Shown one piece after another: positions 9,161-52,197 of a DNA stretch of 64,000 nucleotides. Under the pieces are notes generated by a model. It did not search any database. It worked only from the letters and a program-made list of their open reading frames with translations, and was not told the DNA's origin. The stretch spans positions 140,949-204,948 of the forward strand of contig CAVURJ010000001.1 in assembly GCA_963743885.1 (NCBI GenBank). Direction: 5' to 3'. The stretch comes from Candidatus Moraniibacteriota bacterium (lineage in GTDB: Bacteria; Patescibacteriota; Minisyncoccia; Moranbacterales; UBA1568). A program made the translations under genes and the position numbers. Every line of letters begins with the position of its first letter. The stretch's first letter is position 1.

Positions 9161-10174
9161 CTAGACCAGCTTGTCCTGGTGGTTCTCGGGGACATCGAGG
9201 CCGAGGTGCTGGTAGGCTTCCGGTGTGACGACGCGGCCGCGCGGGGTGCGGGCGAGGAAGCCGAGCTGGATGAGGTACGGCTCGTAGACGTCCTCGATCG
9301 TCTGGATCTCTTCACCGGCGACAGCGGCAATCGCCTGGATGCCAGCCGGTCCTCCGCGGAATTTCTTCATGATGCTTTCAAGGATATGCCTATCAGTCGG
9401 TTCGAGGCCGAGGCGGTCGATCTCATAGAGCGCGAGCGCTTCGCGAGCCGTCTCTTCATTGATGATGGCGATGTCCTTGATCTCCGCGTAGTCGCGGACG
9501 CGTTTGAGGATTCTATTGGCGACGCGCGGTGTCTGGCGGCTAGAATGAGCGATCGCGCTCGCTCCGGATGGGTCGATGCCGATGCCCAGGATGCGGGCGG
9601 AACGAGTGACGATCCTCTCGATTTCTTCTGGCGTGTAGAATTCGAGCCGGTGAGTGGAGCCGAAGCGGTTGCGGAGCGGGTTGGAGAGCGATCCGAGTCG
9701 GGTTGTGGCGCCGATTAGAGTGAAATGGGGCAGATCGAGCTGGATAGTGCGCGCGGCCGGGCCCTTTCCGATGATGATATCGAGCTTGTAGTCCTCCATG
9801 GCTGGGTAGAGGACCTCCTCAATCTGCTTGTTGAGGCGGTGGATCTCATCGATGAAGAGGACGTCACCGTCGTCGAGATTGGTGAGGATGGACCCGAGGT
9901 CTCCGACACGCTCGATGGCGGGGCCTGAGGTGACCTTGATGCTCACGCCCATCTCTTTAGCGATGATATTAGCGAGCGTGGTCTTACCGAGGCCAGCCGG
10001 CCCGTAGAGGAGGACATGATCAATGCTTTCCTCGCGCTTCTTGGCGGCGCGAATCACGATATCGAGGTTGCGCTTGATCTTTTCTTGGCCGACATAGTCG
10101 GTGAAGCACTGTGGCCGGAGCGTGATATCGAGCGTCTGCTCATCGAGTGGCGCTCCTTCGGCTGAATTTATCAT
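9161..10174 (-). CDS. ruvB: Holliday junction branch migration helicase RuvB
   Basis: [17 protein letters not shown] Walker A, RuvB-type AAA+ fold, 337 aa. Confidence 0.92.
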
Positions 10175-10403
10175 ACTAGTGGCTTGAATAAGGGAAGAAA
10201 TACTATGGCAGTCATCTTATTTTACCACCTCTTGACCCCGGTTACAAATTCAGAGAAAGATGTTTGTAATCGGGTATTTGAAGGCGAAGCCGTCTATCGG
10301 CTCAGCTGGGAGAATGTCTGGATTTCGGCCTAATTTGTAACGGGGTTGACAAAAAAACAAAGCCATGCTATCATCCAAAGTCGCTTTACAAAGAATTTAT
10401 GTT

Positions 10404-10446
10404 CCCGGCCCGCCCGCAACGCTTCGCGTAGCGATGCGGGCGGGGC
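10404..10446. repeat. GC-rich palindromic element copy A (CCCGCCCG-loop-GCGGGCGGG family)
   Basis: cccgcccgcaacgcttcgcgtagcgatgcgggcggg; homologous copies at 15398, 18216, 33190, 35541, 52163. Confidence 0.7.
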
Positions 10447-10636
10447 TGTCTCACATGTAGACAATTGGGGATTACTATCTTTTGTCCTCAATCATGGGGA
10501 TGGGCGGGCCTTCGGGTTCCCTAGTCAAGATCGGGTAGGGTGGTTCCGGCTGCGCTACACCTCGACACCATTCCTTTTCTCGGGCTCCTATGTCTGGGAT
10601 TTGTCTACAGCTGAGACAGTGACATAAGCGAACAAA

Positions 10637-10672
10637 AAGAGGCCCATCCGCCAGCCGGCGGAGGGCCTCTTT
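10637..10672. terminator. Bidirectional rho-independent terminator
   Basis: agaggccc-[ccgccagccggcgg]-gggcctct hairpin flanked by A/T runs; 3' of gspE-like gene. Confidence 0.6.
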
Positions 10673-10695
10673 TGCTTTGCCTGTGGAATGATTGG

Positions 10696-13600
10696 TCAGA
10701 GATTCGCGACGCGACGGACTTCGTCGAGTGACGTTTTGCCTTCGATGACCGAGAGTATGCCGTCCTGTGCGATGGTGATCATGCCGTTCTCGATGGCCTT
10801 CTCTTCAATCTCATGAGTGAGCGCTCCGCGGGCGATGAGGTCTTTGATGGTATTGTCGATAGGGATGGTTTCCGAAAGGACGAGCTGCCCCGCATGACCG
10901 GTTCCATTGCAATTCTGGCAACCGGCACCACTCCAGATTTTTAGTGCGTCCTTTGGTAGGGTATCAACGTGTTCCGGCGAGAGCGCAGAGAGGACTTTTG
11001 AGATGATGGCGTGTTCCTCATCGGTCGGTTTTCTCGGTTGTTTGCACTTCTCGCAGAGCCTACGGACGAGGCGCTGTGCGATGAGGAGACCACCGGCATT
11101 AGCGATATCATCACCGGAGATGCCCATTTTCATGAGGCGCGATATGGCTCCGGCAGCAGAATTGGCATGGAGTGTTGAGAGTACGAGGTGGCCGGTATTG
11201 GCGGCTTGTATAGCGATGCGCGCTGTATCATCGTCGCGGATTTCGCCTACCATGAGAACATCTGGGTTCTGACGGAGCAAGGCACTGAGAGCGGTTGAGA
11301 AAGTGTATCCTTCAGCTTCGTTTATCTGGGTCTGTAGAATGCCAGGCATCTGGTATTCGATCGGATCTTCGACGGTGATGATTTTCGTCTCTGGTTTATT
11401 AAGGAGTGCAAGCGTTCCGTAGAGCGTCGTTGTCTTTCCGGATCCTGTCGGTCCGGTATTGAGAATGATGCCGTTTGGAGCATGAATTGCGGAAAGAATC
11501 CTTTTCAAGTTTTGCGATCGGAGAGCGAGGTTTTCAAGGTTGAGCGCGGCATTTGATTGGTTCAGAAGGCGTATAACTGCGGTTTCGCCAAAACCTCCGA
11601 GTATGAGAGAAAGTCGAACATTGATTATTTTGTCCGGCGCGCCATCGGGTTGTTCAATAGCAATAGAGAAACGTTTATCGGTAATTCCGGCGCGCTCGCT
11701 TGTCTTGAGGCCCACTAGGTTCTTGATGTCATTGATAAAGCTCGGATATTCGTTGAGCGGGAAGCGTGCGATCGTTTGAAGCATGCCGTCTATGCGGAGC
11801 CTAATGGAAAAATCTTTGTCGGAGGGTTCGATATGGATGTCGCCAGCATGCATATGTATTGCCGCAGCGAAAACGATCTGTAATCTCGTTTTGGATTCTG
11901 AGTGCAAAACGTATTCCTCGAATACCTGGAAAGAAGAGAGGTGTCGCGCTGTTTCGGTGACGATATCGGATGGAATGAACGATGAGCGCGAAAGGTCGCT
12001 CGACATCAAATCGAGGTAGATATTTTTCAGCATATCAGATTGGTCGGTGACGCGGGAAATCTCCTCAAGTGTTGTGATTCCATCGAGCATCTTTAAGATG
12101 CCATCCTGAGTCATGGTGACCATGCCGTTTTCGAGAGCTGCACGAAAGAGCTCCTGTTCAGTTCCGAGATTTTCGATAATCTTGATGATATCCGGCGTCA
12201 TGGCGAAGACCTCAAAAATTCCGATGCGGCCTTTGTATCCCGTAAAATGACAATTTGGGCATCCAGATGCTTTCCAGAGAACCCGCACCTCTTTCGGAAG
12301 CACGATTTTTGCTTTGGGGGATATGATAGTGATGAGGCGGATGATGGAGTCGATAGTTCCTTTCGCTGGTTCGTATGATTGTTTGCATTGGTCGCAGAGT
12401 TTGCGGACGAGCCGTTGCGCGATAAGGACGTTGACTGAGGCAGCAAGGACCGAGGGCTTCACTCCGAGTTCGATAAATCTTGGGATGGCGCCAGGGGCAC
12501 TGTTGGCGTGGAGCGTCGACATGACGAGGTGGCCGGTGAGTGCGGCGTTGACAGCAATATCAGCCGTTTCGTCGTCTCGAATCTCGCCGATAAGAATGAT
12601 GTCCGGGTCTTGACGGACGATAGCTCGGAGCGCCGAAGCGAAAGTATAGGATTTGTCTTTTGAGACTTCAGTCTGTACGATGCCAGGAAGCGAATATTCG
12701 ATCGGATCTTCGACGGTGATGATCTTAGCCCCTGGCTGGTTGATGATATTGAGGAGAGTGTAGAGCGTCGTTGTCTTTCCGGATCCTGTCGGCCCGGTAT
12801 TGAGCACCATGCCGTTCGGCTTTTCAATCTGGCGGAGCACTTCCTCGCGGGCGAGCCCTCGCAGCCCGAGCGAGTCGATATCGACGATGACATCTTCGCC
12901 TGATAGAAGGCGCATATTTATGCTTTCCCCGTATTTTCCAGGGATGATGTTGACGCGGACATCGATGCGTTTTTGGTCGAGCGTGATGAAAAAGTGACCG
13001 TCTTGGGCTTTATCGCGGATATTGAGCCGCATTTTTCCGATCATTTTGATGCGGGAGATGAGTTGCCGGTAGACCGCCTGAGAAAGCGACCCGATATTTT
13101 GGAGTACGCCATCGACGCGATAACGGAGGCGTACAGTATCTTCTTCTGGCTCGAGGTGGATATCGCTTGCGTCGAGCTTTCTGGCGCCAGCAAGAACGAC
13201 CTCGATGGAATGCGAAGTGGTTGATGGCCGATTTTCTTTCAGGCTGATGAGTTCACCGAAATCCTTTTCGAATTGCTCAAGGTCATTGCCTTTGAGCGAG
13301 ACGCGGACGAGGTCAAGGCTATCGCTGACCGATTGTTTTGTATAAGCTTCCCAGGCGCTTTCAATGGATGGTTTTGAGACGACGTAGAGCTCTCGGCCGA
13401 ATCCTTTTTTCTCTACGAACGTATCGATATAGGAAAGCGCTTCTTGGTTTGCTGGGTCGGTAATCGCAAAGAGTGCCTGTAAGCCTTTCTTTTGGAAAAG
13501 GATAAAGCCGAGGCGTCGAGCGTCCGCCTCCGGGATAAGCAGGGCCTCTTCCGGTTCGACAGGAAAAAGACTGAGGTCTATATATGGGAGGCCGCATGAG

Positions 13601-13719
13601 GCGGCGAAACGAGCGGTAGTTTCCTCAATGGAGACCTCCTTCATCTTCTGTAGGAGCTCCTCTGTCTTCCCTGTTTTTTCATCAGGAAGCTGGCTGCTCT
13701 GATGGGTGACTTTCACCAT
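10696..13719 (-). CDS. Tandem-duplicated GspE/PilB-family secretion ATPase (two complete ATPase cores in one 1007-aa polypeptide)
   Basis: Two Walker A boxes (LNTGPTGSGKTTTLYTL and ILNTGPTGSGKTTTLYGTL), two tetracysteine motifs (CDQCKQ...GCPNCHFTG; CEKCKQ...GCQNCNGTG), N-terminal GSPII_E_N-like domain. Confidence 0.8.
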   Translation of the reverse strand: MVKVTHQSSQLPDEKTGKTEELLQKMKEVSIEETTARFAASCGLPYIDLSLFPVEPEEALLIPEADARRLGFILFQKKGLQALFAITDPANQEALSYIDTFVEKKGFGRELYVVSKPSIESAWEAYTKQSVSDSLDLVRVSLKGNDLEQFEKDFGELISLKENRPSTTSHSIEVVLAGARKLDASDIHLEPEEDTVRLRYRVDGVLQNIGSLSQAVYRQLISRIKMIGKMRLNIRDKAQDGHFFITLDQKRIDVRVNIIPGKYGESINMRLLSGEDVIVDIDSLGLRGLAREEVLRQIEKPNGMVLNTGPTGSGKTTTLYTLLNIINQPGAKIITVEDPIEYSLPGIVQTEVSKDKSYTFASALRAIVRQDPDIILIGEIRDDETADIAVNAALTGHLVMSTLHANSAPGAIPRFIELGVKPSVLAASVNVLIAQRLVRKLCDQCKQSYEPAKGTIDSIIRLITIISPKAKIVLPKEVRVLWKASGCPNCHFTGYKGRIGIFEVFAMTPDIIKIIENLGTEQELFRAALENGMVTMTQDGILKMLDGITTLEEISRVTDQSDMLKNIYLDLMSSDLSRSSFIPSDIVTETARHLSSFQVFEEYVLHSESKTRLQIVFAAAIHMHAGDIHIEPSDKDFSIRLRIDGMLQTIARFPLNEYPSFINDIKNLVGLKTSERAGITDKRFSIAIEQPDGAPDKIINVRLSLILGGFGETAVIRLLNQSNAALNLENLALRSQNLKRILSAIHAPNGIILNTGPTGSGKTTTLYGTLALLNKPETKIITVEDPIEYQMPGILQTQINEAEGYTFSTALSALLRQNPDVLMVGEIRDDDTARIAIQAANTGHLVLSTLHANSAAGAISRLMKMGISGDDIANAGGLLIAQRLVRRLCEKCKQPRKPTDEEHAIISKVLSALSPEHVDTLPKDALKIWSGAGCQNCNGTGHAGQLVLSETIPIDNTIKDLIARGALTHEIEEKAIENGMITIAQDGILSVIEGKTSLDEVRRVANL

Positions 13720-15184: not shown

Positions 15185-15664
15185 ATGATGCAAAATATCT
15201 TTACCACGCATTCGGCAGAGGAAACCAGGGGGCTGGCGAAGGAGCTGGCGCGGGAAATAGCGCCAGGGACGCTCCTGTGTCTCCGTGGTGATCTTGGTGC
15301 GGGCAAGACGACTTTTACACAAGGATTGCTTGAAGGCCTGGGTGCGGCGCGGCCATATGTCAGCCCAACTTTCGTCATCATGAAGCAATACGAGCTACCT
15401 GCCCGAAACACTTCGTATAGCGATGTGGGCGGGCCTGTGCCGACCGCGACTGGTATTGAGTGTATCTATCACGCCGATGCCTATCGCGTTGAAGCGAAGG
15501 ACTTCGAGGGGCTCGGATTTGCCGAGTGGTGCGCCGATCAGAGAGGCATCGTTATCCTTGAGTGGCCGGAGCGCATCGAGGCTATCCTGCCAGAAAAAAG
15601 GGTCGAGATCTCGCTCCAATCGCTTTCGGAAAATGAACGGGAAATCACGATAGAAAAAAAGTAG
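15185..15664 (+). CDS. tsaE: tRNA threonylcarbamoyladenosine biosynthesis protein TsaE, carrying an in-frame ~16-aa insertion from a GC-rich palindromic element
   Basis: LRGDLGAGKTTFTQGL P-loop, SPTFVIMKQY...YHADAYRVE; extra segment ARNTSYSDVGGPVPTATG encoded by element copy B. Confidence 0.8.
   Translation: MMQNIFTTHSAEETRGLAKELAREIAPGTLLCLRGDLGAGKTTFTQGLLEGLGAARPYVSPTFVIMKQYELPARNTSYSDVGGPVPTATGIECIYHADAYRVEAKDFEGLGFAEWCADQRGIVILEWPERIEAILPEKRVEISLQSLSENEREITIEKK
15398..15436. repeat. GC-rich palindromic element copy B, in-frame within tsaE
   Basis: cctgcccgaaacacttcgtatagcgatgtgggcgggcc, ~80% identical to copy A. Confidence 0.65.
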
Positions 15665-15690: not shown

Positions 15691-15717
15691 CTCTTGCTGC
15701 GGAAGTATACTGAAAAC

Positions 15718-18423
15718 ATGGAAAAGAAGCCGAAAATCCTGGTTTTATTGGATGGAAACGCGCTCATACATCGCGCGTATCATGCGTTGCCGCCGCTCAC
15801 GGATAAGGCGGGGCATCCGGTCAATGCGGTGTATGGGTTCGCCATGACGCTCCTCGCGGTGCTTGAGAAGTTCCATCCGGAATATATTGCGGCGTCTTTT
15901 GATCTTTCTGGCCCGACTTTCCGCGATGAGCTATACAAGGATTACAAAGCTACCCGGACGAAGGCGCCGGACGATCTATATGAGCAGATCCCGCGTGTGA
16001 AGGATGTGGTGCGCGCATTCAATATCCCAATCTATGAGAAGGAAGGGTACGAGGCGGATGATTGCGTGGGGACGATCGCACGGCAGGCAGAAAAAGAAGG
16101 TGTGCAGACGATTATCGTGACGGGGGACAATGATGCGCTTCAGTTGGTGACGCCGCTCGTCAACGTGTTTTCGATTCGCAAGGGCATCAAGGACCTCGTG
16201 CTCTATGATGAGGCGGCTGTGAGGGCGAAGTACGGCTTCAATCCGATGCAGCTCGTCGAATATAAGGGGTTGTGTGGGGATGCGTCGGACAATATCCCGG
16301 GCGTGAAGGGTATCGGCGCCAAGACAGCGACCGATCTCATCGCGGCGCACGGTACGCTCGAAGGCATCTATACGTCGCTTGAGACGCTCAAGCCAGCTGT
16401 GAAGGCCAAGCTTGAGGCGGACAAGGAGAATGCTTTCCTCTCGCGCACGCTTGGTACGATCGATACGTCGGCTCCGGTGACACTCGCGCTCACGGATGCA
16501 GTGACGCATGAGTATGACCGGGCGGCGGTCGTGGCGCTCTTTACTGAGCTTGGATTCTTCAGTTTGGTCAAAAGATTGCCGGGTGGCGAAGCCAAGAATC
16601 AAGAATCAAGAATCAAGAATCAAGAGGGGAAGAAGCCGAAAAAGACGAAAACGTTCAAGAATGCGGAAGAGCTTGAGGAGTGGCTTGAGGCGAACAAGGG
16701 GAAGGGTGTTGCGGTCTGGATCGAGAAGGGCGAGGCATCGCTCTTTGGCGGAGCTGGTATCGCAGAGGTGAGGCTTTCGATAGTGGAGGATGCGGAGGTG
16801 GTGGTTGTATGGAACAGCGAGACGAAGCCGGCTCTTAAGGGATTCTTCGAGGATGCGAAGCGCCCGAAGATTCTCTATGATTCGAAAGAAGCGATGCATC
16901 TTCTCGTGAATGAGTATATGGCGCTGGCTGGTGTGGCACGCGATGTGAAGCTCATCGCGTATCTCCTCGATGCCGGTGGTAATGTTGGTTTCGATGAACT
17001 ACTGCTCAAGGAGTTCGGTCTAGAGCATGCCGAAGCGAAGGCCGCTGCGCTCTACGCGCTCAATGCGCGGCTCGGCGAGCGGATCAAGGCAATTTCGGCG
17101 GAGCAGCCGGCGGGCCAGCCCGCAGGAGCTACGCCCACAGCGTTGCTGGCGGGAAAGTCGCTCCTTGATGTTTATGCGGATATCGAACTACCGCTCATCC
17201 CAGTGCTCTTCGAAGTAGAGGAGAATGGCATCTTTCTCAATACGGAAAAATTTAAGGTGCTGTCGGAGCAGCTCGCGGAGGAGCTCAAGACGCTCGAGCA
17301 GGATATCTATGCGTTCGCCGGTCGTGAGTTCAATATCAATTCTCCCAAGCAGCTCTCGGAGATTCTCTTTGAGGATCTTAAGATTCCGACGACGAATATC
17401 AAGAAGACGAAGACGGGTATCTCGACGGCTTCAGCTGAGCTTGCGAAGCTTGCTGAGTATCCGATCGTCGCGAAGATCGAGAGCTATCGCGAACTCTTCA
17501 AGCTGAAGACGACCTATCTTGATGCATTGCCGGCGCTCGTGGGAGCGGACGGGCGGTTGCACACGACCTTCCATCAGACGGTTGCGGCGACGGGGCGGCT
17601 CTCGTCATCTGATCCAAACTTGCAGAATATCCCCGCGAGGAACGCATGGAGCGAGCGTATCCGAGGAGCGTTCGAGGCGAAGCCTGGGTATCTCTTCGTC
17701 GGTGCGGACTATTCGCAGATCGAGCTTCGCGTCATGGCGCATCTTTCGGGAGATGAGTCGCTTGCCGAATCCTTCCGCAATGGTGAAGATGTCCATACGC
17801 GCACGGCTTCTGTGGTCTTCAAGGTGAAGCCGGAGGAGGTGACGGCCGATATGCGCCGGCAGGCCAAGGTCTTTAACTTCGGCATCATGTACGGTATGGG
17901 TAGCTTCGGCCTCGCACAGGCGGCTGGCATCAATCAGAAGACGGCAGCACAGTTTATCAAAGCATATTTCGAGAAATTCTCCGGCGTGACGCGATTTATT
18001 GAGGAGATGAAGGAAGGCGCGCGGAAGCATCACTTCGTTGAGACCGAGCTCGGACGTCGGCGCTATGTGCCGGAGATCGAGAGTGGCAATGTGCAGATAG
18101 CGCGTGCGGCCGAGCGCATGGCGATCAACATGCCGATTCAGGGATTGGCGGCTGATATCATGAAGCTCGCGATGCTCCGCGCGCAGAGAGTTGTCGATAG
18201 GTTTAATGATGCGAACCCGCCCCCGCCCGCATCCCGCTTGAAACGGGAAACGTGGCGGGCAAGGATGGTGCTCCAGGTGCATGATGAGCTCATCTTCGAA
18301 GTGAAGGCGGAGCTTGCGGAAACGTTCGCGAAGGAAGTGAAGGAAGCGATGGATGGAGCCTACCCGCTCCGCGTGCCGCTCATCGCTGCCGTCGAGATCG
18401 GGAAGAATTGGGGAGAGATCTAG
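15718..18423 (+). CDS. polA: DNA polymerase I
   Basis: N-terminus ILVLLDGNALIHRAYHA (5'-3' exo), Pol A motifs (RRQAKVFNFGIMYG, VHDELIFE); carries two in-frame repeat insertions (16594-16624 and 18216-18260). Confidence 0.9.
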   Translation: MEKKPKILVLLDGNALIHRAYHALPPLTDKAGHPVNAVYGFAMTLLAVLEKFHPEYIAASFDLSGPTFRDELYKDYKATRTKAPDDLYEQIPRVKDVVRAFNIPIYEKEGYEADDCVGTIARQAEKEGVQTIIVTGDNDALQLVTPLVNVFSIRKGIKDLVLYDEAAVRAKYGFNPMQLVEYKGLCGDASDNIPGVKGIGAKTATDLIAAHGTLEGIYTSLETLKPAVKAKLEADKENAFLSRTLGTIDTSAPVTLALTDAVTHEYDRAAVVALFTELGFFSLVKRLPGGEAKNQESRIKNQEGKKPKKTKTFKNAEELEEWLEANKGKGVAVWIEKGEASLFGGAGIAEVRLSIVEDAEVVVVWNSETKPALKGFFEDAKRPKILYDSKEAMHLLVNEYMALAGVARDVKLIAYLLDAGGNVGFDELLLKEFGLEHAEAKAAALYALNARLGERIKAISAEQPAGQPAGATPTALLAGKSLLDVYADIELPLIPVLFEVEENGIFLNTEKFKVLSEQLAEELKTLEQDIYAFAGREFNINSPKQLSEILFEDLKIPTTNIKKTKTGISTASAELAKLAEYPIVAKIESYRELFKLKTTYLDALPALVGADGRLHTTFHQTVAATGRLSSSDPNLQNIPARNAWSERIRGAFEAKPGYLFVGADYSQIELRVMAHLSGDESLAESFRNGEDVHTRTASVVFKVKPEEVTADMRRQAKVFNFGIMYGMGSFGLAQAAGINQKTAAQFIKAYFEKFSGVTRFIEEMKEGARKHHFVETELGRRRYVPEIESGNVQIARAAERMAINMPIQGLAADIMKLAMLRAQRVVDRFNDANPPPPASRLKRETWRARMVLQVHDELIFEVKAELAETFAKEVKEAMDGAYPLRVPLIAAVEIGKNWGEI
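16594..16624. repeat. (AAGAATC)4 heptanucleotide microsatellite in polA linker, encodes KNQESRIKNQE
   Basis: aagaatc x4 + aag; identical arrays at 26519 and 34554. Confidence 0.9.
18216..18260. repeat. GC-rich palindromic element copy within polA (in-frame)
   Basis: cccgcccccgcccgcatcccgcttgaaacgggaaacgtggcgggc; encodes ~NPPPPASRLKRETWRA inserted just before the VHDEL motif. Confidence 0.55.
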
Positions 18424-19147: not shown

Positions 19148-19417
19148 TTAATGTGTCTCGATGGATTTGGCGCATTTTGAGCAGAATGGCGTCTCAGGGA
19201 TGAGTTCCAATCGCTTTTCCTCAATTGGTGTTCCGCAGTTGGTGCAGAGGCCGTATTGTCCGTCTGCCAGGCGTCTGACAGCGAAGTCGATCCGCTTGAT
19301 ATCGTCGTAGGAATGCGACAGCGCTTGTTCTCCGCCTTTGTGCAAAATTCCAAGCTTTGATTTCCTGCGTATAGCGAGCCGCCTCCCTATTTGTACAAGG
19401 AACTCCTGCGTAAACAT
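19148..19417 (-). CDS. DksA/TraR-family C4-type zinc-finger protein
   Basis: 89 aa; YGLCTNCGTPI...PETPFCSKCA four-Cys zinc finger. Confidence 0.65.
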   Translation of the reverse strand: MFTQEFLVQIGRRLAIRRKSKLGILHKGGEQALSHSYDDIKRIDFAVRRLADGQYGLCTNCGTPIEEKRLELIPETPFCSKCAKSIETH

Positions 19418-19512: not shown

Positions 19513-20364
19513 ATGCCGGAACTACCGGAAGCGCAGACAGTTGTATCGCAGCTTGGGAAGAAGGCTATCGGCAAGATGGTTTCTGGTTTTTCGAGTGAGT
19601 GGAAGAAGAATGTGCGGCCTTCTTTCGCTGCTTTTGTTCGTAGGGCGAAGAGTGGATCGGTCGTCGCAGTACGTCGTTTCGGCAAGCATATCGTCATCGA
19701 TCTCGATAATGGTTTCTCAATCGTCATCCATCTCAAGATGACCGGGCACCTGCTCTGGAAGACCGATGAGAATCGCGAGAGCAAAGCGTTCGTTGATGAT
19801 CCGTATAATGGTTTCATCCGACATACCCTTTCCTTCTCTGACGGGTCGACGCTTGAATTTTCTGATATGCGCAAGTTCGGCTGGCTCCATGTGATGCCGA
19901 CCAAGGAAGTGGAGGAGCTCCCGTCGATCAGTGGCCTTGGTATCGATGCGCTTTCGCCCGAGCTCACCACGAAGCGTTTCCGTGAGATCGTCTTGTCTCG
20001 GCCCAAGCGGACGATTGGTGAGGCACTGCTCGATCAGGACCGTATCGCTGGCATTGGCAATATCTACCGGAGCGAAGCGCTCTTCCTCGCGTGCGTGCGT
20101 CCAGATCGTATCGTCGCGAGTATTACTGATGAAGAATGGCAGCGGCTCCTGCCAGCAGTGAAACAAGTGCTCCGTCACGCAGCACGTCTTGGTGGACTCT
20201 CTGGTGGTGACTTCCGTGATACAGATGGCAGAGACGGGCGTTTCCAGCGTGCGGCGTATACGTATCAGCGCGACGGTGATCCGTGCAAGATATGTGGTAC
20301 AATTATAAAGCGTAAAAAACTCGGGCAGCGCAGTGTTTTCTATTGCGCGCATTGCCAAAAGTAA
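19513..20364 (+). CDS. mutM: Formamidopyrimidine-DNA glycosylase (Fpg/Nei family)
   Basis: MPELPEAQTV N-terminus (catalytic Pro2), C-terminal zinc finger CKICGTIIKRKKLGQRSVFYCAHCQK. Confidence 0.85.
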   Translation: MPELPEAQTVVSQLGKKAIGKMVSGFSSEWKKNVRPSFAAFVRRAKSGSVVAVRRFGKHIVIDLDNGFSIVIHLKMTGHLLWKTDENRESKAFVDDPYNGFIRHTLSFSDGSTLEFSDMRKFGWLHVMPTKEVEELPSISGLGIDALSPELTTKRFREIVLSRPKRTIGEALLDQDRIAGIGNIYRSEALFLACVRPDRIVASITDEEWQRLLPAVKQVLRHAARLGGLSGGDFRDTDGRDGRFQRAAYTYQRDGDPCKICGTIIKRKKLGQRSVFYCAHCQK

Positions 20365-20381: not shown

Positions 20382-21515
20382 ATGGATGGAAGGAAGAAAG
20401 TCATCATCGCGGTCATCGCGATCGTTGTCGCTATCGCTGTGTGGTATTTTGCCTTCGGCAAGCAGGGCGCCCGCAAGCCGATCGAGCTCAATAACAAGCA
20501 GCAGTCGATGACAGAAGTGCAGACCTCCCCGGTGAATGAGGGCAATGTCAGCCCGCTCTCGGGTCTACCGTGCGACAACTGGAACCGTCGCCCGATCGCG
20601 GTCATGCAGCCTGGTGATGTGACGGCCCGTCCAGCTGCTGGTTTCTCTGAGGCAGACATGGTCTTCGAGATTCCGGTCATCACGTCGAGCATCACGCGGC
20701 TCATGGGCGTATACCTCTGCAACACGCCGGCGGAGACCGGATCAATGCGGAGTGCGCGCCATGACTTCATCAGCCTCGCCAAGGGTCTTGATGCCATCTT
20801 CGTCTCATGGGGACGCTCGGAGTCGCATGACGATTCTGATCCGGTCGGCCTCGCTAAGGGTATCCTCGATCGCGGTGAGGTTGAGAATATCAACTGCAAT
20901 GGCGATGCTGGCAAGTCGGCCAACGCCTGCCCGGAGAATCCTTGCTTCCGCAAGGACGGGATCGCCCGCGGTGTGGATAGCGGCTACGGCAAGCCGGCTG
21001 GGTTCTTCCAGTGCGCCAAGGATTTCGGGTACCGTCTTGAGAACAAGTTCGTTGGTTACAAGCATGTGGCTGAAGCGGCAGCTGATAGCCGGCCGAAGGG
21101 TGGACACTTGCGCGTAGCATTCGCTGGACCGTATGCGGCCGAGTATGACTATGACAAGGATACGAATAGCTATCTCCGTACCTGGGGCAATGTGCCGGAT
21201 ACCGATCGTAATACGAAGGCTCGTGTCGCTCCGAAGAACGTCGTGGTATTGATCGCACTTTCCGAGCAGATCGAGGGGCAGTACAACAATGTGCAGCTCG
21301 GTGATCCGTGGTACGACCGGACCGATAGCGGTGATGCTTTCTACTACGTGAACGGACAAGAGATCCGTGGTACTTGGAAGAAGGACAAGTCAAACATCTC
21401 GAGCAAGCTCTTCTTCTACGATCAGTCAGGTAAGGAAATGGAGTTTGTCCCAGGCCAGATCTGGGTCGAGGTGCTCGAGCCGGGCCAGACGCTCCGGTGG
21501 GAACCTGTGAACTAG
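20382..21515 (+). CDS. DUF3048-like (YerB-like) secreted/membrane-anchored protein
   Basis: N-terminal TM anchor; RPIAVMQPGDVTARPAAGFSEADMVFEIPV resembles the DUF3048 N-terminal motif. Confidence 0.5.
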   Translation: MDGRKKVIIAVIAIVVAIAVWYFAFGKQGARKPIELNNKQQSMTEVQTSPVNEGNVSPLSGLPCDNWNRRPIAVMQPGDVTARPAAGFSEADMVFEIPVITSSITRLMGVYLCNTPAETGSMRSARHDFISLAKGLDAIFVSWGRSESHDDSDPVGLAKGILDRGEVENINCNGDAGKSANACPENPCFRKDGIARGVDSGYGKPAGFFQCAKDFGYRLENKFVGYKHVAEAAADSRPKGGHLRVAFAGPYAAEYDYDKDTNSYLRTWGNVPDTDRNTKARVAPKNVVVLIALSEQIEGQYNNVQLGDPWYDRTDSGDAFYYVNGQEIRGTWKKDKSNISSKLFFYDQSGKEMEFVPGQIWVEVLEPGQTLRWEPVN

Positions 21516-26361: not shown

Positions 26362-27375
26362 ATGAATACAAGCGAATTCCTCCAATCAGAAGCCTGGGCG
26401 AAGCTGCAGGTCGCGGCTGGACATGAAGCGGTGCGTATCGGGGACGATGCGTATGGTTTTGTGCATGTGTTGCCGCTGGTTGGGCGTTACCTCTATACGC
26501 CGAGATGGCCGGCAGATGGAATCAAGAATCAAGAATCAAGAATCAAGAATCTACTTGCGGAAGCGGAGAAAGTCGGAGCGAAATGGATACGGATTGAGCC
26601 GGAGACGGAGGGGATGAAAGAGATACTTCTCCGCCAGCTGGCGGATCAGAATGGTACTGTTTCGGTAGAAAAATCTCCACATGACATGCAGCCGCGGGAG
26701 ACTTTTGTCATTGATATCGCGAAGAGCGAGGATGAGTTGCTCGCAGCAATGAAGCCGAAGACTCGCTACAATATCCGACTGGCAGAGAAGAAGGGTGTTC
26801 GGGTCTTCGCGACACAGGAAAAGAAATATCAAGAAGCCTTTCTTGATCTCATTACCGCGACCGCTGAGCGCAAGGACATCGTGCCGCATCCAAGGAGCTA
26901 TTATGAGAAATTCTTTACCGAGCTACCGGAGGAGATGTGTCACCTCTTCGTCGCGGAATATGAGGGTGTCGTCGTTGCGGCCAATCTCGTGATGATCTAT
27001 GGTGATACGGCGACGTACCTTCATGGCGGGTCAGGCGACCGGTATCGCGAGGCGATGGCGCCGTTCCTCCTCCAGTGGGAGCAGATCAAGTTCGCGAAAA
27101 GCAAGGGTTGTGCGAAGTACGACTTCGGAGGAGTGAGGACAGTCAACAGTCAACAGTCAACAGTCAACGGAGAAACTACAAACTACAAACTACAAACTAC
27201 AAGCTCGTGGGGAGGAATCACGAGATTCAAAACGGGATTTTCGCCGAAGACCGAGCCGACCGTCTTTCCTGGATGCTATGATATCGTACTCGACAAGAAA
27301 GCGTACTGTCTCTATGGGAAGCTGCGGCTGATCCAGGGTGTTCTCGTGCGGATAAGGAGGCTTTTCGGTCTGTAG
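26362..27375 (+). CDS. FemAB-family peptidoglycan aminoacyltransferase, with three in-frame heptamer arrays
   Basis: FemAB-like architecture (FVAEYEGVVVAANLVMIYGDTATYLHGG); arrays at 26519-26551, 27141-27168, 27174-27201. Confidence 0.65.
   Translation: MNTSEFLQSEAWAKLQVAAGHEAVRIGDDAYGFVHVLPLVGRYLYTPRWPADGIKNQESRIKNLLAEAEKVGAKWIRIEPETEGMKEILLRQLADQNGTVSVEKSPHDMQPRETFVIDIAKSEDELLAAMKPKTRYNIRLAEKKGVRVFATQEKKYQEAFLDLITATAERKDIVPHPRSYYEKFFTELPEEMCHLFVAEYEGVVVAANLVMIYGDTATYLHGGSGDRYREAMAPFLLQWEQIKFAKSKGCAKYDFGGVRTVNSQQSTVNGETTNYKLQTTSSWGGITRFKTGFSPKTEPTVFPGCYDIVLDKKAYCLYGKLRLIQGVLVRIRRLFGL
26519..26551. repeat. (AAGAATC)4 heptanucleotide microsatellite in femAB, encodes IKNQESRIKN
   Basis: gaatcaagaatcaagaatcaagaatcaagaatc. 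Confidence 0.9.
27141..27201. repeat. Adjacent (AGTCAAC)4 and (AACTACA)4 heptanucleotide arrays in femAB
   Basis: agtcaac x4 (27141-27168), ggagaa spacer, aactaca x4 (27174-27201); encode TVNSQQSTVNGETTNYKLQTT. Confidence 0.9.
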
Positions 27376-33137: not shown

Positions 33138-33239
33138 TGTCATCCCGGGCTCGACCCGGGATCCAGAAATATGACTAAATAAAGAAGTCCTGGATTCCCG
33201 CCTGCGCCAGCCTCGACGTCTAGGCGGGCGGGAATGACA
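33138..33239. mobile_element. MITE-like ~100-bp element with terminal inverted repeats TGTCATCCCGG / CGGGAATGACA, containing GC-palindrome copy D
   Basis: tgtcatcccgggctcgacccgggatccagaaa ... cccgcctgcgccagcctcgacgtctaggcgggcgggaatgaca. Confidence 0.5.
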
Positions 33240-33278
33240 ACTGAAAGCGGAGCTTCATAATCCAAAGTTTTTACGCCT

Positions 33279-34262: not shown

Positions 34263-34775
34263 ATGGCATCTCCATATCAAGATTTCGTCGCGAAGGCTCG
34301 GGAGCGTTTCGAGGCCAAGCGGCAGGCGAAAGCACAGAGTACTGGCCAGTATCGTTTCACGCTGCATGCGCAGTTCAAGATGCAGCAGTACGGGTTGTCG
34401 GATCAGAAGGTGCGGAGTGTCATCCGCAATCCGCGTCGCCGCGAGGAAGGCATTGTGAAAGACACGGTCGCGGTGATGCAGCCGGTTTCGGTGAAGCGGG
34501 GTGCTGATGGCAAGGATACCTGGAAGCAGGAAATCTGGGTGATGTTCGTTTTGAAGAATCAAGAATCAAGAATCAAGAATCAAGAACAAAAGAAGAAAAA
34601 GGCTGGAAGCGACCAATCGGAGTCTCATGATTCTCAATTCTCAATTCTTAATTCTGCGGGCCGACAGGTCCGCATTATAAGTGCCTGGCGGTATCCGGGA
34701 ATCAGCCCGAAAAGGAACCCTATACCAGAGGATATTCTTTTGGAGCTTGAGAGAGAAGATGTTCTGGAGGGCTGA
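34263..34775 (+). CDS. Hypothetical protein (DUF4258-like N-terminus) containing an (AAGAATC)4 array
   Basis: YRFTLHAQFKMQQYGLSDQKVRSVIRNP; array at 34554-34587 encodes KNQESRIKNQEQ. Confidence 0.45.
   Translation: MASPYQDFVAKARERFEAKRQAKAQSTGQYRFTLHAQFKMQQYGLSDQKVRSVIRNPRRREEGIVKDTVAVMQPVSVKRGADGKDTWKQEIWVMFVLKNQESRIKNQEQKKKKAGSDQSESHDSQFSILNSAGRQVRIISAWRYPGISPKRNPIPEDILLELEREDVLEG
34554..34587. repeat. (AAGAATC)4 heptanucleotide microsatellite, third copy
   Basis: aagaatc x4 + aagaac; inverted degenerate (GATTCTY)4 at 34629-34656. Confidence 0.9.
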
Positions 34776-35531: not shown

Positions 35532-35622
35532 TGTCATCCCGGACTCCTGCCCGAATCGCTACGCGAAGCGTTGCGGGCGGGTGATCCGGGATCCAGAAAC
35601 GGGCCTTTAGCCCGTTTTTTGG
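35532..35622. repeat. TGTCATCCCGG-type element carrying GC-palindrome copy C, fused to a terminator hairpin
   Basis: tgtcatcccggactcctgcccgaatcgctacgcgaagcgttgcgggcgggtgatccgggatccagaaa + gggcctttagcccgtttttt. Confidence 0.6.
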
Positions 35623-36189: not shown

Positions 36190-36376
36190 CATCACGACTC
36201 GTCGAACGATCGGTCGGTTTCAAAGAAGATAACTCTTCTGCGAGACCGGCCGCTTTTCTTTTTCCGAAACTTCTTTTGCGGTATACTTGTATGTGTCATC
36301 CTGAGCTCGTTGGGGGATGACAAAAAAAGTTGTATCTTTTCTATACCCTATTCCCTAAACCCTAATCCCTACAAAA

Positions 36377-37807: not shown

Positions 37808-38048
37808 AATCATTTCTCAGTGAACAGCTAGCAGTTAACGGGGATAAGGAATTTCCTGATTCGTTTCTTGTTGATTGCTGATTGTTGACTGATAAAGGAA
37901 AGGTGGCCCCAGCCCAAGGCTGGTCCGCCTCGGGCGGAGAGTCCCGCCAGGGGCGGGCAGGGGTTTAAGGCAAGCGTAGGGAGAAACTTTACCTGTCGGC
38001 GGCAGGCCTACCGAGGAGATGTAAAAACAATTGATTTCTGGTCAGAGC

Positions 38049-38135
38049 GGAAAGGTGGCCGAGTGGTTGAAGGTACTTGCTTGGAAAGCAAGCGTAGGGG
38101 AAACCCTACCGAGGGTTCGAATCCCTCCCTTTCCG
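38049..38135 (+). tRNA. tRNA-Ser (anticodon GGA), long variable arm, no encoded CCA
   Basis: GGAAAGG/CCTTTCC acceptor, GCCGAGTGGTTGAAGG D-arm, anticodon loop ttGGAaa, GAGGGTTCGAATCCCTC T-arm. Confidence 0.85.
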
Positions 38136-38171
38136 CTCTGTTCAGAAAATTTTCAAAAAACCTTGCTTTCT

Positions 38172-52162: not shown

Positions 52163-52197
52163 CCCGCCCGAAGCGTACCGCTCCGGTGCGGGCGGGT
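52163..52197. repeat. GC-rich palindromic element copy E
   Basis: ccccgcccgaagcgtaccgctccggtgcgggcggg. Confidence 0.65.

Follow-up and report, generated by a model that had tools for sequence, protein, structure and literature searches.

The DNA analysed here comprises 64,000 nucleotides (nt) of contig CAVURJ010000001.1 from a Candidatus Moraniibacteriota bacterium, and this whole stretch is called the window throughout. Its plus strand carries polA, the gene of DNA polymerase I (Pol I), with an open reading frame (ORF) at 15694/15718..18423 and an intact product of 901 amino acids, which was assigned by its Pfam domains, its match to Klentaq and an AlphaFold2 model. Shortly before the codons of the catalytic motif C, this gene contains 15 extra codons, which an earlier reading made from the letters alone (the sequence-only reading) had regarded as an in-frame copy of a GC-rich palindromic element. 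Our analysis supports this interpretation, with corrections, and concerns the 36-nt repeat family to which the segment could be linked, its history in polA and its relation to known palindromic repeats.

The insert in DNA polymerase I

In the encoded enzyme, the residues of the Pol I motifs A, B and C are intact (DYSQIELR, RRQAKVFNFG and QVHDE), and phmmer aligned it with Klentaq at E=2.8e-111. Its sequence agrees completely (100% identity) with a single database protein, P0001, which is encoded on a contig of 652,564 bp and shows the Pfam 5'-3' exonuclease and DNA_pol_A domains. The nearest Pol I homologues share 60-77% identity and are labelled as Moranbacteria, Moraniibacteriota or Patescibacteria.

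The extra codons, as defined against insert-free Pol I alleles, occupy positions 18214..18258 on the plus strand and encode the residues N833-R847, NPPPPASRLKRETWR; the translation across the insert reads ...NDANPPPPASRLKRETWRARMVLQVHDELIFE. The sequence-only reading had placed the same 45 nt at 18216-18260, i.e. with an offset of 2, and the bases it quoted are found there verbatim, with the translation as written. In an alignment of the last 140 residues with the 120 best homologues and the enzymes of E. coli, Taq and Bst, NPPPPASRLKRETWR stands out as 15 inserted residues, preceded by ...RF(N)D(A) and followed by ARMVLQVHDE. The segment is absent from E. coli, Taq and Bst Pol I and from approximately 105 of the 120 closest homologues, which is the opposite of a general conservation among Pol I proteins. 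The phmmer alignment with Klentaq shows a gap at this position, between ...MKLAMVKLF and ...GARMLLQVHDE.

Pol I residues 345-901 were modelled by AlphaFold2 with a mean pLDDT of 88.6. In this model the insert corresponds to the model residues 486-507, following a long helix (448-486) and preceding a strand (504-510), and it was predicted as a low-confidence loop with a short helix, in which the pLDDT drops to 79 and then to 58 compared to values of at least 90 in the flanks. The insert is thereby placed between the long helix after QGLAADIMKLAM and the strand bearing the catalytic HD of motif C. Both the gap in the Klentaq alignment and the low-pLDDT loop support the earlier proposal of a short-loop position, namely in a loop predicted to immediately precede the strand of motif C, and the claimed adjacency to the catalytic motif is evident from the location just before the MVLQVHDE strand.

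A family of 36-nucleotide palindromic repeats

Reading around every GGGCGGG in the window, combined with alignment, revealed a discrete family of 36-nt elements with the consensus CCCGCCCGCATCGCTACGCGAAGCGTTGCGGGCGGG (in polA orientation). The arm pattern CCCGCC-N10-40-GGCGGG occurs five times in the window compared to 0.15 expected occurrences, and none of 100 shuffles reached five. This loose pattern by itself lumps dissimilar hairpins; matches to the consensus with seven or fewer mismatches did not occur in block shuffles of the window (0 matches). Altogether, 5-7 copies of the element are present in the 64 kb. Canonical copies are located at 10409..10444 (minus strand, intergenic, 0 mismatches), at 15398..15433 (minus strand, five mismatches, in frame in the tsaE ORF 15185-15664 with the peptide PARNTSYSDVGG) and at 35546..35581 (plus strand, intergenic, two mismatches), the last one being nested in the loop of another palindrome, TGTCATCCCGGA[...]TCCGGGATCCAG. 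The tsaE copy, which the sequence-only reading had counted as the first in-frame copy, adds exactly 12 codons compared to tsaE of the loci L083 and L091. In addition to two copies in polA, a divergent intergenic copy of 34 nt, CCCGCCCG...CGGGCGGG, was detected at 52163..52196 (no strand assigned, E ~0.002-0.004). A weak and doubtful relative at 33196..33233 (likewise without strand, E ~0.4) has only the arms in common with the family and is more likely a CGTC-type repeat (GGATTCCCGCC...GGCGGGAATGACA). The short GC hairpin TCCCGCC-AGG-GGCGGGCA at 37938-37966, approximately 85 nt upstream of tRNA-Ser (38049-38136), is probably unrelated to the element, the model of which gave E ~0.1-0.7.

The copy at 10409 lies between the RuvB and T2SSE-ATPase genes, in a spacer whose positions 10346-10680 (+) contain an apparent unannotated structured RNA gene of approximately 290 nt. 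It has a promoter (TTGACA-17-TATCAT, 10346-10374), a terminator (10639-10675) and a predicted fold with a minimum free energy of -146 kcal/mol (z=-8), matches no Rfam family and is well conserved in the relative L084 (3703-4094), promoter included. Read from the plus strand, its 5' hairpin is the element copy 10409-10444, and the L084 copy is found at the equal relative position. A search of the whole window with Rfam 15 at gathering score returned tRNA-Ser as the only match, with the element hairpins unmatched, and at permissive E-values over 10150-10720 there were only chance-level matches over the 10409 copy.

Alignment and covariance models delimit the element copy proper within the polA insert to 18222..18264 (+). 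It is composed of the left arm CCCGCCCGCA (18222-18231), the inner hairpin TCCCG/CTTGAAA/CGGGA (18232-18248), AACGTG (18249-18254) and the right arm GCGGGC (18255-18260), which is followed by the decayed 3' tail AAGG. Directly upstream, CCCGCC at 18216-18221 repeats the start of the arm, resulting in PPPP compared to PP in relatives. Since the perfect stem of this copy measures only 6 bp, and it is therefore missing from the list of window stems of at least 7 bp, the hairpin alone is unconvincing, and its significance comes from the match to the family. Two covariance models were applied, of which R1 includes three orthologous inserts from this polA site and R2 was built only from copies outside it; by the tool's own statement, the calibration of both is rough. 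R1 scored the window copy with 31.7 bits (E=1.4e-5) and R2 with 22.3 bits (E=0.0056; whole window, both strands). The similarity to the element is thus significant in a window-wide search, and its identification as an in-frame family member could be retained. Because the window copy is a lengthened variant, the clearest link to the family is provided by its orthologues. The insert in polA of L084 (protein P0014), which reads CCCGCCCGCATCGCAAAGCGAAGCGTTTCGGGCAAG, is identical to the consensus at 33 of 36 positions and was found by R2 with 38.6 bits (E=1.7e-6), the L081 insert has the 12 terminal nt on either side in common with the element, and polA inserts aligned with dispersed copies have identical ends.

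The second polA copy, CCAGCCCGCAGGAGCTACGCCCACAGCGTTGCTGGCGGG, is situated in frame at 17115..17153 (+) and adds the 13 codons CAG CCC GCA GGA GCT ACG CCC ACA GCG TTG CTG GCG GGA, translated as QPAGATPTALLAG. Both covariance models found it, at 17110-17158 (E=0.024 with R1, E=0.03 with R2). It is unique to the window genome, being absent in 12 relatives in a codon alignment and in the 120 homologues, and AlphaFold2 placed it in a disordered loop with pLDDT below 50. The polA gene also contains the heptamer array (AAGAATC)4 noted earlier, which is real and located at 16593-16620. Hence, instead of the two repeat insertions originally counted, window polA contains three, i.e. two element copies and the heptamer array. 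This array is one of three (CAAGAAT)4 arrays in the window (the others at 26523-26550 and 34560-34585) and is in frame in the polA linker, where it encodes KNQESRIKNQE. In relatives, the Pol I linkers likewise show stretches of the type NQESGI.NQES, and (N/D)PST(A/T)LRAG recurs there as a second motif; because of the recurrence of both motifs, the linker seems to gather translated repeats of several families.

The fold of the element was deduced from covariation across 107 copies. The pairing conserved among them is that of a staggered hairpin, (G)CCNGC / C / CGC / A / TCGC / TAC / GCGA / A / GCG / TT / GCN'GG(C), followed by a GGG tail, so that an A-A mismatch, a TT bulge, the TAC loop and the GGG tail form its irregularities. 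At one stem pair we counted CG 74, AU 10, UA 9 and UG 6 with 20 double compensatory changes, and the covariation observed for the staggered hairpin was reached in 0 of 500 shuffles. The simple 10-bp arm stem CCCGCCCGCA/TGCGGGCGGG was also considered and dropped, because it left 26-35 unpaired cells at two positions and showed no covariation. The sequence-only reading had described terminal arms CCCGCCC and GGCGGG. The enrichment of this pattern in the window stands, but the simple pairing of the arms does not, since covariation favours the staggered, irregular hairpin. The fold is maintained among the polA orthologues, which show TCGC/GCGA compared to TCGT/ACGA and TCTCGCT/AGCGGGA compared to TCCCGCC/GGCGGGA, and their innermost pair is either T-A or C-G. 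Patterns of G-T wobbles were inspected for a functional strand and permitted no assignment, as the copies were inconsistent between the arms and between sites.

In a scan of JGI metagenomes with CCCGMATCGCNNNGCGAAGCGT, at least 120 stretches carried the element, on contigs with a GC content of 32-66%. The alignment of 110 distinct copies displays 36 conserved columns with abrupt ends, next to which five columns on each side are random, and over 90% of the copies have TAC at the three free positions of the loop. The GC content of the element itself is 78%, yet it remains unchanged in contigs of 32-45% GC. Presence or absence of exactly 36 nt distinguishes alleles of tsaE and of a second polA site, located after NLQNIP. 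Furthermore, the element is nested at the loop centre of other copies in six loci (L096, L100, L107, L137, L138 and L161), where the interruption measures exactly 36 nt and the host sequence ACGCTTCG^CGTAGCG resumes with nothing duplicated. In place of terminal inverted repeats with a target-site duplication, the insertions were exactly 36 nt long and none was accompanied by a duplication. The presence/absence differences, the nested copies, the 35546 copy in the tip of a palindrome and the unchanged 78% GC in AT-rich genomes show that the element is a discrete mobile unit, which inserts as 36 nt without target-site duplication. Insertion has often occurred in the tip of another hairpin or beside native sequence resembling the element's own arm. 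After NLQNIP, the L004 sequence CCC GCC CGC AAT matches the arm at 11/11 positions, and native CCG GCG GGC precedes the 17115 copy. This resemblance at two polA sites suggests a targeting by homology or base pairing.

Concerning the host genes, Pfam domains on both sides of the element were recognised in nine metagenomic ORFs, which encode a GT4 glycosyltransferase, RsmH, transketolase, an LCP protein, a class I tRNA synthetase, DnaG, a DUF2298 protein, UvrC and a peptide chain release factor; in-frame copies besides those nine are present in polA (three sites), tsaE and a Mur ligase gene. All in-gene inserts have lengths in multiples of three (33, 36, 39, 42 and 45 nt) without stops. Five of the six reading frames of the element are stop-free, with the polA frame giving PPAS(LR)EALRA, and the frame containing TAG is never used by in-gene copies. 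In the verified genes, the frame PA(R/S)NASRSDAGG is found mostly, then PPASLREALRA (polA frame) and once ARIATRSVAG. L084 contains further or weak copies at 20773-20808, 19195-19250 and 19751-19796 in Mur ligase and FemAB-family genes. The in-frame tsaE element of the window (15398-15433) is shared by the genome of P0080, and the corresponding positions are 1341-1392 in L088 and ~8860-8900 in L084. L084 has a shortened remnant at this site, and it is empty in L083, L086, L087 and L091. Besides polA, tsaE therefore shows a patchy distribution of the element at one and the same site.

The family crosses phyla, because DnaG of one element-bearing contig is closest to Portnoybacteria/Parcubacteria, and LigA of a soil contig with 54% GC is 81% identical to a Verrucomicrobia protein. 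The phenomenon is special neither to polA nor to this Moranbacteria organism. The element is not obviously carried by phages or plasmids, since BLAST of the consensus against plasmid and phage collections gave no match and a scan of viral contigs only three stretches. A tRNA T-arm lookalike beside the element (L093, L106, L110, L129 and L130) was dismissed as well; ARAGORN located the nearest tRNA-Val approximately 270 nt away, and no tRNA contains the element.

History of the polA insert and competing explanations

A comparison with polA of close relatives had been suggested by the sequence-only reading. The segment is absent in most of them, but it is not private to the window genome and is instead old and shared, because a homologous same-site insert is present in 13 of the 120 closest Pol I, comprising 11 long forms (window protein included) and two short ones. 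At this main site, P0015 and P0018 show a 2-residue extension and L004 an 8-residue form, and among the matches listed in a Pol I profile search of genome contigs there were six Moranbacteria loci, none with the full insert. A neighbour-joining tree of Pol I was calculated without any of the inserts from 688 well-aligned columns. In this tree, the carriers appear in at least eight separate places, each with insert-free nearest neighbours. The window Pol I pairs with P0108, and the sister group, P0004-P0006, is insert-free. Over the whole gene, carriers are no more alike mutually than in comparison with insert-free sequences (difference 0.00, standard deviation 0.048), and in the 15-20 residues upstream of the insert the excess in likeness of the carriers reaches 0.20.

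All nine long copies share the non-consensus 3' end ...CGGG(C/T)AA(G/A) and the flank N(N/K)D. This shared decayed 3' end and the flanking N-x-D motif, together with the upstream likeness of the carriers, argue for a single origin, so it appears reasonably probable that all copies at the main polA site descend from one old insertion. The canonical 36 nt are seen as the 12-codon form in L084, L085 and L088. In the forms of 14-15 codons, the inner stem is symmetrically extended by three nt on each side, and the window copy shows the CCGCCC duplication besides the lengthened inner stem. At the second site, after NLQNIP, the copies of P0108 and P0024 are identical to each other over 36 nt, and their neighbouring synonymous sites differ at 5/7 upstream and both downstream codons. 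Other variants of the element occupy this site in P0090 and P0110, and that of P0110 reads PARNATRHDAGGPARNW, nearly the translated consensus. Overall, Pol I in this group, the window protein included, is hit at three different positions.

Among nine insert-bearing genes, the synonymous codon identity amounts to 0.75 in the insert compared to 0.48 elsewhere, which is rank 1 of 894 gene windows. This conservation is confined to the element columns and falls to the background level immediately outside. A recent co-conversion of the flanks was rejected as its cause, because synonymous sites in the flanks are saturated up to the element boundary. Judged from these patterns, the hairpin could have a function in polA.

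Taken together, the 45-nt segment very likely represents a translated in-frame copy of a mobile repeat family, accommodated in a loop. We regard the element as a hairpin-forming, non-autonomous mobile repeat with similarity to REP elements (repetitive extragenic palindromes) and as an analogue of the Rickettsia palindromic elements (RPE). One old insertion at the main polA site would have been kept in some lineages and then become longer, as the inner stem grew symmetrically and, in the window genome, the 6-nt arm duplication was added. The patchy distribution may have arisen from hairpin-mediated precise deletion, with the precise loss occurring by slippage, from allelic recombination between lineages, or from both. 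Pol I would tolerate the insert as a surface loop without catalytic use; the loop position and its absence in most relatives suggest that it is neutral for the enzyme. Mobility of the element may involve a single-stranded DNA hairpin and an enzyme whose gene is located elsewhere, similar to the HUH/Y1 tyrosine transposases. Given the lack of duplications and the conserved irregular hairpin, we consider such a trans-acting enzyme possible rather than probable. The excess of nucleotide conservation may reflect selection on, or homogenisation of, the hairpin itself. More speculatively, the hairpin would be a cross-phylum element under nucleotide-level selection even in essential genes, with its fold serving as the recognition site of a horizontally travelling enzyme. 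We regard this extension as doubtful; if true, a homing-like or recombination-driven allelic spread would explain the patchy polA distribution, the linked flank variant and the near-perfect third-position conservation at once. In a variant of this speculative explanation, copies would have been recruited by the host, as in the conserved 290-nt RNA at 10380-10680.

Several points weigh against our interpretation. The window polA copy taken alone is a weak hairpin with a moderate model match. The scatter over at least eight clades needs many precise losses or recombination, a count obtained from a simple distance tree, and the proposed history does not fully explain the strong conservation at third codon positions. 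That the insert is translated we infer from reading-frame statistics. As to a mobilising gene, tblastn over the window (~10% of the host genome) and ~1.1 Mb of loci, with proteins of IS200, IS608 and RAYT (REP-associated tyrosine transposases) as queries, yielded one IS200/RAYT-like gene only. This tyrosine transposase gene is located on an element-bearing soil contig (L108, 9599-10063), where the surrounding repeat is a different one with the translation PQAQSCYPFG rather than the 36-nt element.

If a Pol I loop had simply expanded in a lineage-specific manner, unrelated to any repeat family and with the palindromic, GC-rich appearance as a by-product of Pro, Ala and Arg codons, the 6-bp stem of the window copy would be understandable, as would a peptide conserved among 13 relatives in the way of a functional loop. 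However, such an expansion leaves unexplained why the L084 insert agrees with a dispersed consensus at 33/36 positions, why the model without copies from this site still finds the insert, why synonymous conservation stops at the element boundaries and why the element is translated in other frames in unrelated genes; we regard it as very improbable. Somewhat more can be said for a hairpin that is kept for a local role in polA as an RNA or DNA signal, for example an mRNA pause or stability element or a protein-binding site, with the mobile origin being incidental. The excess of synonymous conservation confined to the hairpin and the compensatory changes among polA orthologues agree with such a role, and the 10409 copy in a conserved structured RNA implies that the host can put copies to use. 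Nevertheless, many unrelated genes and spacers contain the element, some with and some against the direction of transcription, approximately 105 of 120 close Pol I genes do without it, and the outermost arm pairing is decayed in the polA copies, which together make this alternative unlikely.

Repeated independent insertions into a preferred target at the main polA site would account for carriers over at least eight clades with insert-free nearest neighbours. Moreover, insert-free sites such as GAC GCG CGC ATG resemble the arm GCCCGCAT, and after NLQNIP four distant lineages carry different variants, two of them 36/36 identical in spite of saturated flanking synonymous sites. At the main site, however, each insertion would need to recreate the non-consensus 3' end and the N-x-D flank, and we consider recurrence there rather unlikely compared to one old insertion. 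A skipping of the insert by the ribosome, or its removal from the mature protein as in yeast mitochondrial bypass elements, may come to mind for a GC-rich hairpin in coding sequence whose 36-45 nt resemble the sizes of bypass elements; the stop-free in-gene lengths in multiples of three, the avoidance of the TAG frame and the conserved peptides render it extremely improbable. Finally, the source is a metagenome-assembled genome, in which a chimeric join at a repeat could arise during assembly or binning. At least 11 independent assemblies (JGI, ENA, NCBI and Logan) contain homologous inserts at an identical codon position, and this, together with the preserved reading frame and the mutual divergence of the copies, reduces the chance of such an artefact to almost nothing. 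Hence, we keep to the translated copy of a mobile repeat.

Other features of the window and relation to known repeats

The minus strand at 10696-13719 encodes a secretion/pilus ATPase of 1007 amino acids with an internal duplication and two T2SSE domains; the repeats at 11330-11478 and 12671-12819 share 79-92% DNA identity over blocks of 60-76 nt. A different palindromic family, TGTCATCCCGGG-loop-CCCGGGATCCAG, occurs at 33138-33163, at 35532-35557 with 35582-35593, and at 36294-36319, and a palindrome GGATTCCCGCC...GGCGGGAATGACA at 33190-33240. The 36-nt element interrupts the 35532 copy. These palindromes (TGTCATCCCGGG..., ...GGCGGGAATGACA) look like CGTC-tagged REPs, for which the translations VIPAKAGI and CHSRESGNP were tabulated (Di Nocera et al., 2013, PMC3733652).

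Intragenic REPs of the GTAG- and CGTC-tagged superfamilies are palindromes of 20-40 bp, which are mostly located in spacers and also in frame in genes (Di Nocera, De Gregorio and Rocco, 2013, PMC3733652). Many of the REP-bearing genes function in replication and repair; they include DNA polymerase I of R. palustris, UvrABC, DnaE and tRNA synthetases, and most intragenic copies were counted in the verrucomicrobium Opitutus terrae (PMC3733652). The insertions encode approximately 10-30 residues, thought to be placed in loops or linkers, and the subfamilies show compensatory stem variants (PMC3733652). Like REPs, the 36-nt element is a short, imperfect palindrome with many dispersed copies in spacers and in frame. 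In contrast to the GTAG and CGTC types, it ends in CCCGCC.../...GGCGGG without a terminal tag, with random flanks in the 110 copies, and its only GTAG lies in the loop on the complementary strand. As to a linkage with a RAYT gene, the sole tblastn match (L108; ~1.1 Mb, with ~10% of the host genome) is flanked by a different repeat family. Unlike REPs, the element has one consensus common to different phyla. Patescibacteria are not among the host phyla listed for intragenic REPs in PMC3733652.

The RPE represent a second class of palindromic repeats translated inside genes (PMC10969869). The 36-nt element resembles them in being inserted in frame in unrelated housekeeping genes of small-genome bacteria and in being kept in orthologues, fold-compatible, with a preferred frame and a conserved peptide. 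However, RPE-1 is ~100-150 bp long and Rickettsia-specific, whereas the 36-nt element has an unrelated sequence, is hosted by Patescibacteria and Verrucomicrobia and, unlike RPE, uses at least three reading frames (PARNASRSDAGG, PPASLREALRA and ARIATRSVAG). The translation of Rickettsia palindromic repeats inside genes was reportedly described by Ogata and colleagues in 2000. A generalisation of this finding was given by Di Nocera et al. (2013, PMC3733652).

Elements mobilised by IS200/IS605-type transposases or RAYTs generate no target-site duplication, have hairpin-defined ends with conserved irregularities and insert beside specific short sequences. The likeness of the 36-nt element to them lies in the possible mechanism, in which a single-strand hairpin is plausibly the active form, and is not evidence of membership; the element is also much shorter than known non-autonomous derivatives of the IS200/IS605 type. 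The mobile GC clusters of yeast mitochondria are likewise short GC-rich palindromes, which invade AT-rich genomes, coding regions included. GC-rich bypass elements of the yeast mitochondrial genome were reportedly presented by Lang and colleagues in PNAS in 2014. The lengths of translational bypass elements do not follow the codon triplet, stops occur in them, their take-off and landing codons are matched, and the ribosome skips them, whereas the in-gene copies of the 36-nt element are all in frame and stop-free.

Generally, the finding matters because essential, strongly conserved enzymes of the candidate phyla radiation have repeatedly been lengthened by one tiny mobile hairpin, as in Pol I at three sites, DnaG, UvrC, RsmH, TsaE, a tRNA synthetase and a release factor. 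Such inserts account for part of the odd extra loops in proteins of these phyla and can mislead alignments, phylogenies and structure-based annotation, and the recurrent peptides PARNASRSDAGG and PPASLREALRA look like protein motifs but are actually footprints of a repeat. With its sharp ends, insertion without duplication, covarying fold, occurrence in two phyla and coexisting alleles, the element represents a clean system for studying how palindromes spread and persist in coding sequence.

Within the literature searched, no paper was found with the sequence of the element, and none reporting such repeats in Patescibacteria. The polA insert is a further example of a published phenomenon, namely palindromic repeats inside genes, Pol I included (PMC3733652, PMC10969869). 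What goes beyond the published picture is the host phylum, the three independent sites in one essential gene and the single 36-nt consensus in two phyla, and also the patchy same-site distribution together with the conservation at the nucleotide level.

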